Of a stretch of 64,000 nucleotides of DNA, positions 9,503 to 21,154 are shown piece by piece. Position numbers and translations under genes: made by a program. Source of the stretch: Candidatus Omnitrophota bacterium (GTDB lineage: Bacteria; Omnitrophota; Gorgyraeia; Gygaellales; Profunditerraquicolaceae); the NCBI GenBank assembly GCA_028717245.1, contig JAQUOD010000004.1, forward strand, positions 65,508 to 129,507, read 5' to 3'. The notes under the pieces were generated by a model, which was given only the letters and a program-made list of their open reading frames with translations, was not told the DNA's origin and did no database searches. The first letter of the stretch is position 1. Each line of letters opens with the position of its first letter.

Positions 9503-9553
9503 GGGACAGTCCCCTTGGTTTGCTTCGGATTAGCTTTCTACGGGGACAGTCCC
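9503..9553. repeat. REP-like pair of GGGACAGTCCC(C) 5-1-5 palindromes spaced about 27 nt apart, starting 5 nt beyond the folD stop codon.
   Basis: AGGGACAGTCCCCTTGGTTT...TACGGGGACAGTCCCT. The same unit recurs at 18357-18407 and 21103-21154. Confidence 0.6.
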
Positions 9554-9558
9554 TGTTA

Positions 9559-10404
9559 CTATTCTTGTTGTAACTTTGCTGCTTCGACGACGTTACGCAT
9601 CAGCATAGTAACGGTCAGGGGGCCGACACCGCCGGGAACCGGGGTAATATAGGATGCGCGTTTTTCTGCAGCCTCAAATTCCACATCGCCGACGATTTTA
9701 TCAGCCACGCGGTTTATCCCCACATCAATCACCACTGCGCCCTCTTTAATCCATTCGCCTTTAATGAGCCCGGCCCTGCCTACTGCCACAATCAAAACTT
9801 CGGCCTTATTGACGTGCTCCTCTAATTTTTCTGCCTTTGACGTGCCGATATGGCAGACCGTAACCGTAGCAAATTTATCCAATAATAAAAGTGAAAGCGG
9901 CTTACCCACGATTTCGCTGTGGCCTACGACTACCACTTCCTTACCGTATAAATCCAACCCTGTTTCTTTCAATAGCTCCATTACCGCTGCCGGGGTACAA
10001 GGCAATATCTTCGCCTGGCCAAAAACAATCTTACCAATATTCGCCGGGTGCATTCCCTCCACATCTTTATCCGGTGAAATATACTGGCTGATTTTTTTAT
10101 AATCTATTTGGGGCGGAAGCGGCATCTGGATAATAATACCGTTAATAGACTTATCTATATTTAATTTCCAGATAAATTCAGTAAGGGAAACCTCAGTAGT
10201 ATCCGCGCTTAACTTATGGAATTGATATTCTATGCCTAAGCCCTCTGCGTTTTTTTTCTGAGACTTTGCGTAGGCCTCGGCACCGGCGTTATCCCCTACC
10301 TGGATACTGGCTAAAACCGGCTTATTCTTTAAAGAAACTATCTCTTGTTTGATCCCTTCTTTTATCTTCTCTGCTAACGGCTTACCCTCTAATAATTTTG
10401 CCAA
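9559..10404 (-). CDS. folD: Bifunctional methylene-THF dehydrogenase / methenyl-THF cyclohydrolase.
   Basis: MAKLLEGKPLAEKIKEGIKQEI... with FolD-family length and conservation. Confidence 0.9.
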   Translation of the reverse strand: MAKLLEGKPLAEKIKEGIKQEIVSLKNKPVLASIQVGDNAGAEAYAKSQKKNAEGLGIEYQFHKLSADTTEVSLTEFIWKLNIDKSINGIIIQMPLPPQIDYKKISQYISPDKDVEGMHPANIGKIVFGQAKILPCTPAAVMELLKETGLDLYGKEVVVVGHSEIVGKPLSLLLLDKFATVTVCHIGTSKAEKLEEHVNKAEVLIVAVGRAGLIKGEWIKEGAVVIDVGINRVADKIVGDVEFEAAEKRASYITPVPGGVGPLTVTMLMRNVVEAAKLQQE

Positions 10405-10945
10405 CTTTCTCCTCCATCTCCTGTCTTATCCTTTTTACGGTCTTTTCTTTCTGGATTAATTCTTTTCTCACGGCAGTAGCCAGCTTTTTATCGCCCAGCA
10501 TCTTTAGGTTTATCTCGACATTAAAATACGCCGAAGCAAAGGCTGCCTCTAAAAGAATTGCCGCCACTGCCACGTCGCTGATAAGGTTAAGGTTGCCTTT
10601 GGTAATCAGGGGCGGGCATAATTTTATCCCTTCATAAGAAAGCCGCGCTATCATAAAAGGAACATCCAGGGCATCCCGGATATTTTTACTCTGATAGGCG
10701 ACAACGTCTAAATCTACTAAATTTAAAAATTCCTCTCTTAATTTTTCGGATTTCTCTATTATCTTCTTTAACGCGTCTTCATATTTGGCATATTTGGGTT
10801 TTCCTAAGGTAAAATTTACCACCATACTGATTAAAGATGCGCCCAGGCCGGCGTTCAATGCGGCGGCAGAACCGCCTCCGGGAGCGGGAAGTTTAGCGGA
10901 TAGATCGTTTAAGTATCTTTTCAGGCTCAGGTCTTTATAGTTCAT
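10382..10945 (-). CDS. fchA: Cyclodeaminase/cyclohydrolase family protein (FchA/FtcD-like methenyl-THF cyclohydrolase).
   Basis: LPAPGGGSAAALNAGLGASL motif typical of the FTCD_C family. It sits between fhs and folD. Confidence 0.7.
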   Translation of the reverse strand: MNYKDLSLKRYLNDLSAKLPAPGGGSAAALNAGLGASLISMVVNFTLGKPKYAKYEDALKKIIEKSEKLREEFLNLVDLDVVAYQSKNIRDALDVPFMIARLSYEGIKLCPPLITKGNLNLISDVAVAAILLEAAFASAYFNVEINLKMLGDKKLATAVRKELIQKEKTVKRIRQEMEEKVGKIIRG

Positions 10946-12636
10946 GATAATCCGACGATTTCTCCTTTCTCATTCAGGTCAATCTTCTCGCCTACCGGAT
11001 GGCTGGGCAGCCCGGGCATAGTCTGCATATTTGCGCAGAGAGGGTACAAGAATCCTGCGCCGATAGAAGCGCGAATATCTCTTATTGGCAGGATAAAGTT
11101 TCTGGGCCTTCCCTTTAGGTTCGGGTCGTGGGATAAAGAAAGATGAGTTTTAGCCATACATATGGGCAATTTATCCCATCCGCGTTCGTTAAACAATTTA
11201 ATTTTTGCTTGCGCCAAGTCCGCATATTCTACGTCTTTGGCGCCGTAAATTTTAGTAGCAATAATCTTAATTTTCTCCTTAATGGGCGCATCCAGCGTAT
11301 AGAGGAATTTAAATTTCTTAGGCGAATTCGCTGCCTTAATTACTGCCCTGGCTAAATCTGTCCCGCCTTTTGAACCTTTGCTAAAGACTTCACTTACGCA
11401 ACAATCATGGGCGCCAAACCCTAAAGCCTTCTCCTTGACAAAATCTATTTCTTTATCCGTATCGCAGGAAAACCTGTTTATCGCTACTACTACCGGAATG
11501 CCGAATACCTTAACATTCTCTATTTGTTTTTCCAGATTACAGAGACCCTCCCCTATTGCCCTTATATCTTCTTTCTCAAAACAAGTATCTAAGGGCATGC
11601 CGGCGACAACTTTAAATCTTCCGCTGTGCGCCTTTAATGCCCTGATAGAACAAACAATTACTGCGGCATCGGGGATGAGCCCGCTGACCCGGCATTTGAT
11701 ATCAAAAAACTTTTCTGCCCCGCAGTCAGCGCCAAAGCCTGCCTCGGTAACTACATATTCGGAAAACGCCAAAGCAATCTTATCGGCTAATATCGAACTA
11801 TTGCCGTGCGCAATATTAGCAAAAGGCCCTGCGTGCACGAAACAAGGCGTATGCTCAATGGTCTGGATAAGGTTAGGTTTTATGGCATCTCGTAAAAGTA
11901 CGCTCATGCTGCCTGCGGCTTTTAAATCCTGGGCGGTTACCGGCTTATTGTCAAAAGTATCTGCCAAGACAACCCTGCCGATACGTTTACGCAGGTCAGC
12001 TAAACTACTGCTCAGCGCTAATATTGCCATCAGCTCTGAAGCAACGGTAATATCAAAACCAGTATCCCGCGCAATACCGTCTTCTTTTGCGCCTAAGCCG
12101 ATTTTTACGTTCCTCAAGAACCTGTCGCTTATATCTGCTACCCGGCGCCAGTAGATTTTTTCCGGGTCGATATTCAGGCGGTTGCCCTTAAAAACAGAAT
12201 TATCTAAAAACGCTGCTGCCAGATTATTAGCAATACCCACCGCATGCACATCGCCGGTAAAATTCAAATTAAAATCCTCCATGGGCAATACCTGGGAATA
12301 TCCTCCTCCTGCGGCACCGCCCTTTATACCAAAAACAGGGCCTAAGGAAGGCTGCCTTATGCAGGTTGAGGTAAGTTTACCCAACTTGTTTAAAGCCATA
12401 GAAAGGCCGATAGTAGTTACGGTCTTTCCTTCACCCAGCGGCGTAGGAGTGATAGCCGTAACTAAAATATATTTGCCTTTCTTTTTATTTTTGATCTTAT
12501 CCAGGATACCCAGGTCTATCTTGGCAATATTGCGGCCGTAAGGGATAAGGTATTCTTTGCCGATTTTTAATTTAGCGGCTATCTTTTCTATGGGTTCTTT
12601 TCGCGCCTTGCGGGCGATTTCAATATCGGGTAACAT
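10942..12636 (-). CDS. fhs: Formate--tetrahydrofolate ligase.
   Basis: 564 aa with TPTPLGEGKTVTTIGL P-loop and the FTHFS signature. Confidence 0.9.
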   Translation of the reverse strand: MLPDIEIARKARKEPIEKIAAKLKIGKEYLIPYGRNIAKIDLGILDKIKNKKKGKYILVTAITPTPLGEGKTVTTIGLSMALNKLGKLTSTCIRQPSLGPVFGIKGGAAGGGYSQVLPMEDFNLNFTGDVHAVGIANNLAAAFLDNSVFKGNRLNIDPEKIYWRRVADISDRFLRNVKIGLGAKEDGIARDTGFDITVASELMAILALSSSLADLRKRIGRVVLADTFDNKPVTAQDLKAAGSMSVLLRDAIKPNLIQTIEHTPCFVHAGPFANIAHGNSSILADKIALAFSEYVVTEAGFGADCGAEKFFDIKCRVSGLIPDAAVIVCSIRALKAHSGRFKVVAGMPLDTCFEKEDIRAIGEGLCNLEKQIENVKVFGIPVVVAINRFSCDTDKEIDFVKEKALGFGAHDCCVSEVFSKGSKGGTDLARAVIKAANSPKKFKFLYTLDAPIKEKIKIIATKIYGAKDVEYADLAQAKIKLFNERGWDKLPICMAKTHLSLSHDPNLKGRPRNFILPIRDIRASIGAGFLYPLCANMQTMPGLPSHPVGEKIDLNEKGEIVGLS

Positions 12637-20766: not shown

Positions 20767-20825
20767 CGTATTATCCTCCTATCTAATTAGTGTGAATTTG
20801 GTAGTTTCGAGCTTGCGTTAGCATT

Positions 20826-21020
20826 TAGCGGGTGACGAGGCATGTTTTGAGCAGCATCTTGAAAATTCGAGCGGGCACGGTTGCCCCGCTAAATACGAAG
20901 CCGGGCAGAGCGAGAATTTTCACCGAAGTGCAGTGAGCCACGCTGGGGCGAACAAACGGTGCTGCGAAAAATATGCCTCGGCAGGACCCGCTACCTCGCA
21001 AGCGAGAAAAGCTGTAGTAA
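20826..21020. mobile_element. Diverged long copy of the X element, in the opposite orientation to 19895-20068.
   Basis: CGAGCGGGCACGGTTGCCCCGCT...GAGCGAG... aligns with the reverse complement of the X core. Its ends match the 9391-9490 short copy. Confidence 0.5.
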
Positions 21021-21038
21021 AATTAGTTATCAAATATC

Positions 21039-21154
21039 AGGGACAGACCCCTAAGTATAACTTCGTATATCGCTAATTCGGGGTCAGTCCCTTCGTTCTA
21101 TTAGGGACAGTCCCCTTGGTTTCTAATGGGGTCGATATCTGCGGGGACAGTCCC
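21039..21154. repeat. Two REP-like palindrome pairs. The first (21039-21093) is degenerate. The second (21103-21154) is intact and overlaps the ruvB stop codon by 1 nt.
   Basis: cagggacagacccc...cggggtcagtccc...agggacagtccccttggtttctaatggggtcgatatctgcggggacagtccc. Confidence 0.6.

Follow-up and report, generated by a model that had tools for sequence, protein, structure and literature searches.

The window, that is, the whole 64-kb stretch of Candidatus Omnitrophota DNA analyzed here, contains four copies of a 53-nt element, AGGGACWGTCCCC-N27-GGGGACWGTCCCT, all of them intergenic and one of them degenerate (Table 1). These four copies are probably REP/REPIN-type non-autonomous mobile DNA that is moved in trans by a RAYT and has a probable side effect on intercistronic mRNA. 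The 53-nt repeats represent a known kind of element, of which they form a new family, and not a new kind of system.

Table 1. Repeat elements in the window and the genes that they follow.
Feature	Position	Strand	Composition	Predicted fold	Neighboring gene
REPIN-like copy 1	9502..9554	-	units 9502-9514 and 9542-9554, spacer 9515-9541; on the transcribed (-) strand AGGGACTGTCCCC-GTAGAAAGCTAATCCGAAGCAAACCAA-GGGGACTGTCCCT, T-form	-28.7 kcal/mol, z -5.1	starts 4 nt past folD stop TAG (9559-9561)
REPIN-like copy 2	18356..18408	-	units 18356-18368 and 18396-18408; A-form on the transcribed strand		6 nt past queH stop TAA (18415-18417); ATG of DUF2905 gene (18344) 11 nt downstream
REPIN-like copy 3	21103..21155	-	units 21103-21115 and 21143-21155; T-form on the transcribed strand		overlaps ruvB stop TAG (21154-21156) by 2 nt
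Degenerate tandem copy 4	21039..21092	-	AGGGACAGACCCC...GGGGTCAGTCCCT	-25.4 kcal/mol, z -4.8	
Second REPIN type, 75-nt perfect hairpin	6489..6563	-	AGGGACGGTTCTCAAG...AAAGTGTCCCC-TGAAAA-GGGACACTTT...GAGAACCGTCCCT	-45 kcal/mol, z -8.3	8 nt past stop of Prismane/CO-dehydrogenase-family gene (6572-8482, -)
folD	9559-10404	-	Pfam THF_DHG_CYH		
queH	18415-18951	-	Pfam QueH		
ruvB	21154-22200	-	Pfam RuvB		

The paired GGGACAGTCCC palindromes that a sequence-only reading had described at three loci, with a further degenerate pair, are the ends of this hairpin-forming 53-base repeat. A scan of the window retrieved GGGACWGTCCC exactly at 9503, 9543, 18357, 18397, 21104, and 21144 and with one mismatch at 21040 and 21081. 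These eight units stand against 0.49 expected, and 0 of 100 shuffles attained eight, which confirms the pairs. A search of the whole 64 kb with AGGGACWGTCCCC, two mismatches being allowed, gave no additional convincing unit. The full copies are 53 nt long and have the form AGGGACAGTCCCC-N27-GGGGACAGTCCCT, with a constant distance of 40 bp between the unit centers (41 bp in the degenerate pair). The copies at 18356-18408 and 21103-21155 run in opposite orientations and share 94% identity, the non-palindromic spacer included, which argues for copying and not convergence and bears out the proposal of a common element present in both orientations; the stretches at 9501-9554 and 18356-18409 are 85% identical. 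GTAG or GCAG stands inside the spacer after the first unit (GTAG in two of the window copies), and the outer flanks of the window copies carry neither the GTAG nor the CGTC of the tagged REP superfamilies (Di Nocera et al. 2013). The location at the stop codons of folD, queH, and ruvB was likewise correct, with distances of -2 to 6 nt and the three gene identities confirmed by Pfam. Rfam 15 gave no match in the window at the gathering score, and none on the elements in 6300-21400 at E values of up to 5.

The conserved feature of the element is the pairing between its two ends. Predicted folds of the element show a stem of 13 bp with one central mismatch, at -24 to -31 kcal/mol and z scores of -2 to -5. 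Among the copies listed, 16 double swaps keep the pairing between the units and break the symmetry within them, six are single changes, and none shows the reverse. In the window, the T-to-A change in the left unit of copy 4 is matched by an A-to-T change in its right unit, which keeps the hairpin and abolishes both unit palindromes. The base at the center is equal in both units in 169 of 169 elements listed, including 32 of 32 29-nt mini-hairpins in which the units lie only 16 bp apart; this identity is not required by the seed pattern of the scan. The variants that keep pairing and lose the palindrome indicate that what is conserved is one 13-bp hairpin with a fixed central mismatch and not two operator-like palindromes. 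Thus, the suggestion that the two units pair as a single stem was right, whereas the further suggestion that each 5-1-5 palindrome is the site of a dimeric protein is not supported. An inverted doublet with compensatory changes, around a less conserved spacer of constrained length, is a hallmark of REPs and REPINs.

The family extends well beyond the window. A metagenome scan retrieved at least 120 loci with at least 165 distinct copies, and the counts derived from it here refer to the copies listed. Among these, lengths are concentrated at 52 to 53 nt, and there are 122 distinct spacers. The stop codon of the incoming gene lies 0 to 14 nt upstream of the element in most cases, and in 14 cases the element's AG completes a TAG stop, as at ruvB, where the first two bases of copy 3 are the AG of the stop. 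The Shine-Dalgarno sequence and ATG of the next gene often follow 6 to 23 nt downstream of the metagenome copies listed. Incoming genes are sense in 64 cases and antisense in 26, and one orientation is favored on the sense strand by about 5:1; copy 2 of the window is in the minority orientation. Since all genes of the window lie on one strand, with which the GC skew coincides, this bias may reflect transcription or replication alike. This abundance at gene 3' ends in related metagenome contigs, together with core-flanked RAYT genes elsewhere (see below), upholds the resemblance to REP/BIME elements that had been seen 3' of the window's ORFs.

The flanks of the copies point to insertion without duplication of the target. 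Among the copies listed, matches between the two flanks show no excess over chance (2 nt in 22 of 121, 3 nt in 4 of 121, and 5 nt in 0 of 121), and an extended-stem test revealed a weak excess of one extra base pair only. A short conserved flank is present on one side (T-Y 5' of the A-form), and only 6 of 161 copies have at least five T among the 8 nt that follow the stem on the predominant sense strand, where the flank is R-A-A-A. Tandem and decayed copies also occur. When ORFs were clustered around 120 loci from genomes and 120 from metagenomes, no protein family recurred beside the repeats. A protein of approximately 150 amino acids that is flanked by units in several loci proved to be one family across relatives with no match to the RAYT profile, and judging from its sequence it is probably a housekeeping protein of the Rossmann type. 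A rough context analysis of the high-GC genome loci tells little, since long spurious ORFs there place 48 pairs “inside” ORFs.

Among syntenic relatives (L121 to L129), the sites at ruvB, queH, and folD occur in filled, decayed, and empty versions. The orthologous site at the folD 3' end is empty in L123. The queH site holds a 29-nt derivative in L127 and L128 and no element in L123, where the two genes overlap. The ruvB junction is occupied in L121 and L122 with a different spacer, occupied with a truncated right unit in L126 to L129, and empty in L123 to L125. Moreover, the spacer at the ruvB site of L126 is identical to that at the folD site of the window in 26 of 27 positions. Presence and absence at orthologous sites is the turnover seen with mobile REPs and REPINs. 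Lineages with a RuvB 88 to 91% identical to that of the window have an occupied ruvB junction, and its being filled in three lineages could also reflect long-standing vertical inheritance maintained by selection, a point that would favor a host function.

RAYT genes were found by an HUH-motif screen and then by profile (families NCBIfam NF047646 and PF01797). The profile search of the 64-kb window gave no match, in agreement with the earlier statement that no RAYT gene is present there, and phmmer gave no matches with an approximate IS200 transposase query. The search for such a transposase outside the window was productive: RAYT genes (NF047646) have the exact core on both sides in five Firmicute loci (L066 and L267 to L270). 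Homologues of the L066 RAYT at 69, 56, and 46% identity have the exact core on both sides, at the tip of a longer palindrome, and RAYT-like genes in Neobacillus and Kiritimatiellae are preceded by the core. The flanks of Omnitrophota RAYTs read GGGAAACTGTCCCC ... GGGACAGTTCCC, near-identical arms that differ from the unit by one base; contigs searched for an Omnitrophota RAYT with the exact 53-nt doublet on its flanks gave only variant arms. Among the loci listed, a RAYT homologue is present in 4 of 120 unit-selected 8-kb loci, where by our own rough estimate about 0.3 would be expected by chance for a single-copy gene.

The proteins reach or exceed the REP_Tyr_transpos cut-off (about 80 to 87 bits) and attain only 20 to 22 bits for transpos_IS200, against a cut-off of 55. 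Y1/RAYT is the only transposase family found beside the core, and no TnpB gene was seen. RAYTs that adjoin the core in different phyla are only 30 to 40% identical, which counts against one dedicated RAYT clade. The core pair is multi-copy in at least 10 phyla, where its units are often bordered by an A-tract and a T-tract outside Omnitrophota, and GTAG is fused to the core (GTAGGGAC) in the relatives L005, L040, L074, L058, and L083. In viral contigs, a related core, GGGTCWGACCC, forms hairpins followed by T runs, and the two W-C-W-G-W cores occur at 6 and 9 loci versus 0 to 1 for six composition-matched palindromes. When the core was looked for in a literature library, spelled as DNA and as RNA, only primers and unrelated eukaryotic or viral matches came up and no microbial paper, and GGGACWGTCCC is absent from the REP surveys PMC3733652 and PMC12306157.

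The 75-nt hairpin of the window strengthens the connection with RAYTs of this phylum. Its arms are similar to the flanks of an Omnitrophota RAYT gene, and its CAAAGC-AAAAGTGTCCC matches the upstream flank of the L271 RAYT in 17 aligned bases with a one-base gap. The X elements, to which two of the three loci had been tied, indeed border the folD and ruvB copies but belong to a repeat family of their own, and the tie is co-occupancy of the same short intergenic gaps and not membership in one common element. The family also occurs apart from X elements, as in the queH copy.

As defined in Pseudomonas fluorescens SBW25, REPINs are inverted doublets that enclose a less conserved, fixed-length spacer, show compensatory changes, and form tandem clusters (Bertels and Rainey 2011, PMC3116915). 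The Omnitrophota element shares with them the two highly conserved inverted ends around a length-constrained spacer, the hairpin in single-stranded DNA or RNA with compensatory changes, and the extragenic location with decayed singlets and tandem clusters. A single-copy RAYT elsewhere in the genome, flanked by the same repeats, may also have its counterpart, here in same-core RAYTs of other genomes. It differs in its length of 53 nt (29 nt in the mini form), compared with the 71-bp spacing of the invariant 16-mers in group I doublets (PMC3116915), in that each end is itself a palindrome of 11 to 13 nt, in its strictly conserved central mismatch, and in its host phylum; a RAYT cognate to this exact doublet is presumed. 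REP/BIME elements of the Escherichia coli type with TnpA-REP (Ton-Hoang et al. 2012, PMC3333891; Nunvar et al. 2010, PMC2817692; Di Nocera et al. 2013, PMC3733652) are similarly short, G+C-rich imperfect palindromes just 3' of genes, occur single, paired, or arrayed without target-site duplication, and are associated with Y1 HUH transposases. The fusion of GTAG to the core in some relatives is a further likeness, whereas the window copies carry GTAG or GCAG within the spacer and not at the outer 5' end. The subterminal imperfect hairpins read on single-stranded DNA by a Y1 transposase, the strand-biased insertion without duplication, and the conserved short flank on one side are also reminiscent of IS200/IS605 and its miniature derivatives, but the low transpos_IS200 scores, the lack of TnpB, and the gene-free elements set this family apart.

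These features are consistent with a mechanism in which the 13-nt ends, inverted around the spacer of about 27 nt, would form a G+C-rich 13-bp hairpin in single-stranded DNA or RNA, with a conserved T.T or A.A mismatch at its center. A single-copy RAYT (Y1 HUH tyrosine transposase) elsewhere in the genome most likely copies or moves the element in trans, presumably by recognizing such hairpins on single-stranded DNA and inserting them without target duplication. Copies would persist nowhere but in the short stretches that separate a stop codon from the next ribosome-binding site and hence be co-transcribed within operons, where the hairpin probably serves in addition as a 3' barrier, a processing site, or an obstacle to ribosomes, and not as an intrinsic terminator. 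Both the mobilization of this 53-nt family by a RAYT of the source genome and an effect of the hairpin at the RNA level are inferred.

An effect of this kind could also be the whole story, the element being a host cis-regulatory RNA hairpin and not mobile DNA, which stabilizes the upstream mRNA, directs its processing, or stalls terminating ribosomes. Its place between stop codon and Shine-Dalgarno sequence, the orientation bias on the sense strand, the stem kept through compensatory changes, and the ruvB junction filled across related lineages would all suit such a role. REPs of E. coli stabilize upstream mRNA, and Liang, Rudd and Deutscher reportedly found in 2015 that a REP no more than about 15 nt from a stop codon reduces expression by stalling ribosomes. 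We nevertheless consider this origin unlikely, given the near-identical spacers at unrelated loci in both orientations, the empty orthologous sites whose genes function without the element, the tandem and decayed copies, and the presence of the same core beside RAYT genes. As a secondary role, and not as the origin of the element, the RNA hairpin is compatible with RAYT-mobilized REP/REPIN-type DNA.

The remaining readings fare worse. A classical MITE, derived by deletion from an insertion sequence that has terminal inverted repeats and a DDE transposase, would account for the 13-nt inverted ends, the small size, and the many copies; it is very unlikely, as target-site duplications do not exceed chance, no DDE transposase recurs near the copies in the ORF clustering, and Y1/RAYT stands alone beside the core. 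Paired double-stranded DNA operators, at which each 11-nt palindrome binds a dimeric regulator or nucleoid protein cooperatively at sites 40 bp apart, would explain the perfect 5-1-5 symmetry and the constant spacing (41 bp in the degenerate pair). We give this reading hardly any credence in view of the symmetry-breaking swaps, the 29-nt versions with their closer units, the location at gene 3' ends and not promoters, and the lack of a linked regulator gene in the ORF clustering. It is no easier to believe that Rho-independent terminators have converged on one sequence. A G+C-rich hairpin directly 3' of ORFs invites that idea, as do the A- and T-tracts flanking the core in other phyla and the T runs of the viral hairpins, but the family has next to no U-tract, copies lie within operons just ahead of the next start codon, and conserved spacers in both orientations favor copying. 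Furthermore, a terminator scan of 6 to 23 kb returned no full doublet stem; 3 of its 24 sites overlap single units, and the number of sites is close to the 17.5 averaged by shuffles.

A broader reading, which we hold only tentatively and regard as rather doubtful, is that GGGACWGTCCC and its sister core GGGTCWGACCC form an undescribed cross-phylum REP superfamily read by widely transferred RAYTs, and that insertion at stop codons has made it a punctuation of operons in Omnitrophota. The multi-copy core pair in at least 10 phyla and the counts of the two cores in viral contigs speak for it. If this were true, the recognition element of these RAYTs would be a conserved G+C-rich tip or arm with a C-W-G center, the Omnitrophota family would show a preference for strand and site in inserting right at stop codons, and its elements would be a built-in punctuation between operon genes that affects translation termination or mRNA ends. 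In practical terms, contig breaks in Omnitrophota assemblies are probably due in part to the 53-nt repeats and the X elements, and masking both is advisable in searches for regulatory motifs.

For the biology of the phylum and of the family, the finding brings REPIN-RAYT biology into Omnitrophota, a candidate phylum that is known almost entirely through metagenomes, and describes a very compact REPIN of 29 to 53 nt in which compensatory changes cleanly separate a hairpin from a palindromic operator. The same 11-nt core beside RAYT genes in several phyla offers a handle on what a RAYT reads in a REP, and the tight, oriented placement at stop codons makes the family well suited to asking whether the host uses such elements or merely tolerates them.

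The paired palindromes are a real feature of the window. A motif scan retrieved eight GGGACWGTCCC units, six perfect and two with one mismatch, exactly where the sequence-only reading had placed them, against an expectation of 0.49; none of 100 shuffles gave eight. A relaxed search of the whole 64 kb with AGGGACWGTCCCC, allowing two mismatches, found no additional convincing unit. The full element, two inverted units around a spacer, measures 53 nt (AGGGACAGTCCCC-N27-GGGGACAGTCCCT). Copies 18356-18408 and 21103-21155, which lie in opposite orientation, are 94% identical with the spacer included, and between copy 9501-9554 and 18356-18409 the identity is 85%. 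The genes around these copies all lie on the minus strand, and Pfam confirmed the folD, queH and ruvB assignments of that reading, together with MTHFR, SpoIID, DUF2905 and ScpA nearby. The element starts 4 nt after the folD stop codon and 6 nt after that of queH. The AG of the ruvB TAG stop belongs also to the ruvB copy; the ATG of the DUF2905 gene lies 11 nt past the end of the queH copy. Three of the four copies present the T-form, one of the two orientations of the element (the other being the A-form), on the sense strand. For each copy the predicted fold is a stem of 13 bp with a single mismatch at its centre (-24 to -31 kcal/mol, z of -2 to -5).

A metagenome scan with the pattern AGGGACAGTCCCCTT-N15-30-CGGGGACAGTCCCT gave at least 120 loci, and the matches listed contain at least 165 distinct elements with at least 122 different spacers, their lengths clustering at 52 to 53 nt. 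The spacers form subfamilies with both ends conserved and a variable middle: read in the T-form, one type is G-Y-C-A-G/A-AGCTA...TTAAA, and a second, to which the window queH and ruvB copies belong, is G-C/T-AGATATYG...GAAACCAA. One flank is biased, being T-Y 5' of the A-form, equivalent to R-A 3' of the T-form. The same matches include 32 distinct copies of a 29-nt mini-hairpin, AGGGACTGTCCCC-GAA-GGGGACTGTCCCT, composed of two units and a 3-nt loop. A mini-hairpin variant, AGGGTC...GACCCT, is also present, and mini-hairpins often immediately adjoin 53-nt copies to give three-unit clusters. A subset of the 53-nt copies is embedded in conserved flanks (...GATAAGCACTGCAGT, element, ACCAAGCGAGATAAG...), an indication that these copies belong to a larger composite repeat or have landed at a preferred site.

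The palindromic units had been read either as duplex sites for a dimeric protein or as the two sides of one stem with a central mismatch, and the variants decide between these readings. An A/T flip is tolerated at two positions per unit. Among the matches listed, 16 elements carry double changes that keep the pair between units and break the symmetry of each unit, of the types AGGGTC.GTCCCC/GGGGAC.GACCCT and AGGGAC.GACCCC/GGGGTC.GTCCCT, the latter including the degenerate copy of the window; six carry a single change, and none of the variants compared keeps unit symmetry while losing the hairpin. A broader compensation count, partly confounded by mis-joined neighbouring units, points in the same direction. 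The central base is identical in both units of all 169 elements listed, including the 32 mini-hairpins, for which the seed pattern of the scan did not demand it; every stem therefore has T.T or A.A mismatched at its centre. Because the hairpin, not unit symmetry, is conserved, the dimeric-operator reading is rejected and the single stem stands: judged from these substitutions, the conserved object is one imperfect single-strand hairpin and not two duplex operators.

The position of this hairpin relative to genes bears on a further reading. When genes were taken as frames open for 100 codons or more that end near an element, the incoming gene was on the T-form-reading strand for 64 of the metagenome elements listed and on the other strand for 26, with the stop codon 0 to 14 nt ahead of the element in most sense cases; in 14 cases a TAG stop is built with the element's own AG. 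A simpler gene call, within 60 nt of the stop, gave 39 T-form versus 6 A-form cases, with the next gene start often 6 to 23 nt 3' of the element, and in many flanks a Shine-Dalgarno sequence and an ATG follow immediately. The elements thus occupy the gaps between cistrons and must be co-transcribed. A stem after a stop codon could be an intrinsic terminator; read on the predominant sense strand, only 6 of 161 elements listed have at least five T in the 8 nt past the stem, and canonical intrinsic terminators are therefore rejected. Mobility as a DDE-type MITE is likewise rejected, as no target-site duplication was seen in the flanks of the metagenome elements listed.

The best RuvB matches share 80 to 91% identity, and those bearing names are Candidatus Omnitrophota or Omnitrophica. 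Contigs of relatives keep the order ScpA-RuvB-QueH-DUF2905-SpoIID-QueA-TGT-TrmD-L19-RNaseHII-UPF0102-FTHFS-FTCD_C-FolD, and the window therefore holds extra DNA between ruvB and queH: X elements together with genes for a DUF3800 and a trypsin-like protein. The orthologous sites in these relatives (L121 to L129) show that close lineages have them filled, decayed or empty, and different loci have spacer types in common; by sequence comparison, this fits turnover by copying or conversion between copies.

Locations of the hairpin elements, their orthologous sites and other repeats (window coordinates unless a locus, L, is named)
Feature	Location	Description
Element at folD	9502-9554	Perfect units at 9503, 9543
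Element at queH	18356-18408	Perfect units at 18357, 18397
Element at ruvB	21103-21155	Perfect units at 21104, 21144
Degenerate copy	21039-21092	One-mismatch units at 21040, 21081
29-nt mini-hairpins	L151, L153, L154, L216, L223, L261 (e.g., L154 2062-2090); L127 11856-11884	
53-nt copies in conserved flanks	L150, L167, L173, L174, L183, L195, L211, L224, L227, L240, L254; L083	
ruvB stop	L121/L122	Full doublet, exactly same junction (TTTTAG/GGAC, slash at junction), spacer different
ruvB stop	L126-L129	Copy with truncated right unit; spacer identical to window folD copy at 26/27 positions
ruvB stop	L123-L125	No element; TAG kept
queH/DUF2905 junction	L127/L128	29-nt derivative AGGGACAGTTCCC-TTCG-GGGAGAGTCCCT
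queH/DUF2905 junction	L123	No element; genes overlap
folD 3' end	L123	No element
RAYT flanks	L274	GGGAAACTGTCCCC ... gene ... GGGACAGTTCCC
RAYT flanks	L271	AAAAGTGTCCCC ... gene ... GGGACACTT
DUF3800 gene	19138-19833	
Trypsin-like peptidase gene	20083-20766	
X elements, window	19890-20066; 53480-53660; 20790-21010 (reverse); 9376-9470 (reverse)	
X elements, relatives	L121 11095-11216; L123 12738-12825; L126 11100-11315	
Tandem repeats, first group	6009-6054, 15928-15989, 29018-29071, 46421-46466, 52441-52486	
Tandem repeats, second group	48011-48056, 63136-63195, 32346-32386	
Tandem repeats, third and fourth groups	14725-14788, 33900-33964; 38950-39046, 44821-44907	
Inverted-repeat element	48678-48827	57-nt arms, 77% complementary

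Other repeats accompany the hairpins. The X elements are a separate family of about 170 to 200 nt that looks like a MITE, with inverted termini (TTTTACGGGTCCTGTCTTGGCTTG ... CAAGCCAAGCCATCCGTAAAA); copies 19919-20066 and 53512-53660 are 95 to 100% identical. They often lie within about 20 nt downstream of hairpin elements, also in relatives and metagenome contigs, and they bracket both the DUF3800 and the trypsin-like peptidase genes. Since QueH in the syntenic relatives follows RuvB directly or after one small ORF, the stretch 19138-20766 looks like an insertion. Intergenic short tandem repeats of 7 to 9 nt (AAACATTY, TAAGCTG, GTATCAAG, ATTGAGTTC) also occur, with the same type returning at several loci and some as inverted blocks; similar repeats adjoin RAYT (REP-associated Y1 transposase) genes in two loci, L249 and L194. 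The arms of the inverted-repeat element contain repeated GCACCAGGTGC motifs and end in ...GTACCTGTCCC / GGGACAGGTAC..., and this element and the hairpin families have GGGAC/GTCCC ends in common.

No RAYT gene was found in the 64-kb window with a profile of 240 RAYT homologues, in agreement with the sequence-only reading. The same profile matches genes in loci fetched solely for containing the core. Among Firmicutes, in a Eubacterium MAG (L066), a 248-aa protein scores 79.6 bits with NCBIfam REP_Tyr_transpos, just below the cut-off of 80, and also matches Pfam Y1_Tnp; its gene is flanked by TTGGGGACAGTCCCCAA...GGGGACAGTCCCCAA on the 5' side and TTGGGGACTGTCCCCAA on the 3' side. Homologues in three other genomes (69, 56 and 46% identity) have the exact core on both sides, where it forms the tip of a longer palindrome with a variable lower stem (TGTACAAATG, TGTACCATTG or TGCAACAAAA). 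Upstream of a Neobacillus RAYT the core recurs at a distance of 170 nt, and a unit array precedes a weak RAYT-like gene on a Kiritimatiellae contig. Mutual identity of the RAYTs beside the core in different phyla is only 30 to 40%. Two Omnitrophota metagenome loci encode RAYTs of a 161-aa type, widespread in the phylum, at 86.6 and 85.6 bits, above the REP_Tyr_transpos cut-off. The exact 53-nt doublet was not found among the Omnitrophota RAYT flanks looked at; these consist of related arms, and those of L271 align with the arms of a separate 75-nt hairpin of the window (6489-6563) over 17 bases with a one-base gap.

A genome scan for paired units gave at least 120 loci, and those listed span Planctomycetota, Actinomycetota, Acidobacteriota, Bacillaceae, Lachnospiraceae, Prevotella, Kiritimatiellia, Omnitrophota and others, several genomes supplying more than one. 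In some genomes (L053, L083, L052) almost all gene boundaries of an 8-kb stretch carry a unit. Between phyla the core alone is common, and spacers and outer stems differ. In Bacillaceae (L053 Lederbergia, L094, L105, L114, L115) the core is extended to GGGGGACWGTCCCCC and regularly accompanied by TTAACG/TTAAAG-type motifs (e.g., CATTAACGCGTTAAC) in spacer or flanks. A control scan of viral contigs used eight patterns of paired palindromes, equal in composition and differing in the two bases that follow GGG: AC (GGGACWGTCCC) gave 6 loci, TC (GGGTCWGACCC) 9, CA and GC 1 each, and AG, CC, TG and CT none. These numbers are small and suggest that GGGG-W-C-W-G-W-CCCC cores are favoured; swaps from AC to TC are also those tolerated inside the Omnitrophota family. 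The nine viral contigs with paired GGGTCWGACCC units (L137 to L145) often carry this sister core inside an A-tract, long hairpin and T-tract arrangement resembling a bidirectional terminator.

By the published definition (PMC3116915), REPINs are inverted doublets whose spacing is conserved and whose spacer varies; they show compensatory changes, occur also as decayed singlets and in tandem clusters, and flank RAYT genes. In their doublets, spacers, compensatory changes, singlets and clusters the Omnitrophota elements match this definition; the exact core flanks RAYTs in Firmicutes, and related arms flank those of Omnitrophota. They fit the single-strand processing model of REP/BIME and TnpA-REP as well (PMC3333891). 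They differ from classical REPs and REPINs in being very small, with arms that are themselves palindromic, in their invariant central mismatch, in that GTAG is not at the outer end, and in sitting very tightly and oriented at stop codons. A published survey describes REP superfamilies from the Planctomycetes-Verrucomicrobia-Chlamydiae group (PMC3733652); the GGGACWGTCCC core is absent from that survey, from the RepRanger survey and from the microbial literature searched, and no Rfam family matches the elements. A cross-phylum REP superfamily defined by the core, with insertion directed to stop codons, is a speculative extension that we consider rather unlikely. The best explanation, and quite probably the correct one, is that the elements constitute a REP/REPIN-type family new for Omnitrophota.
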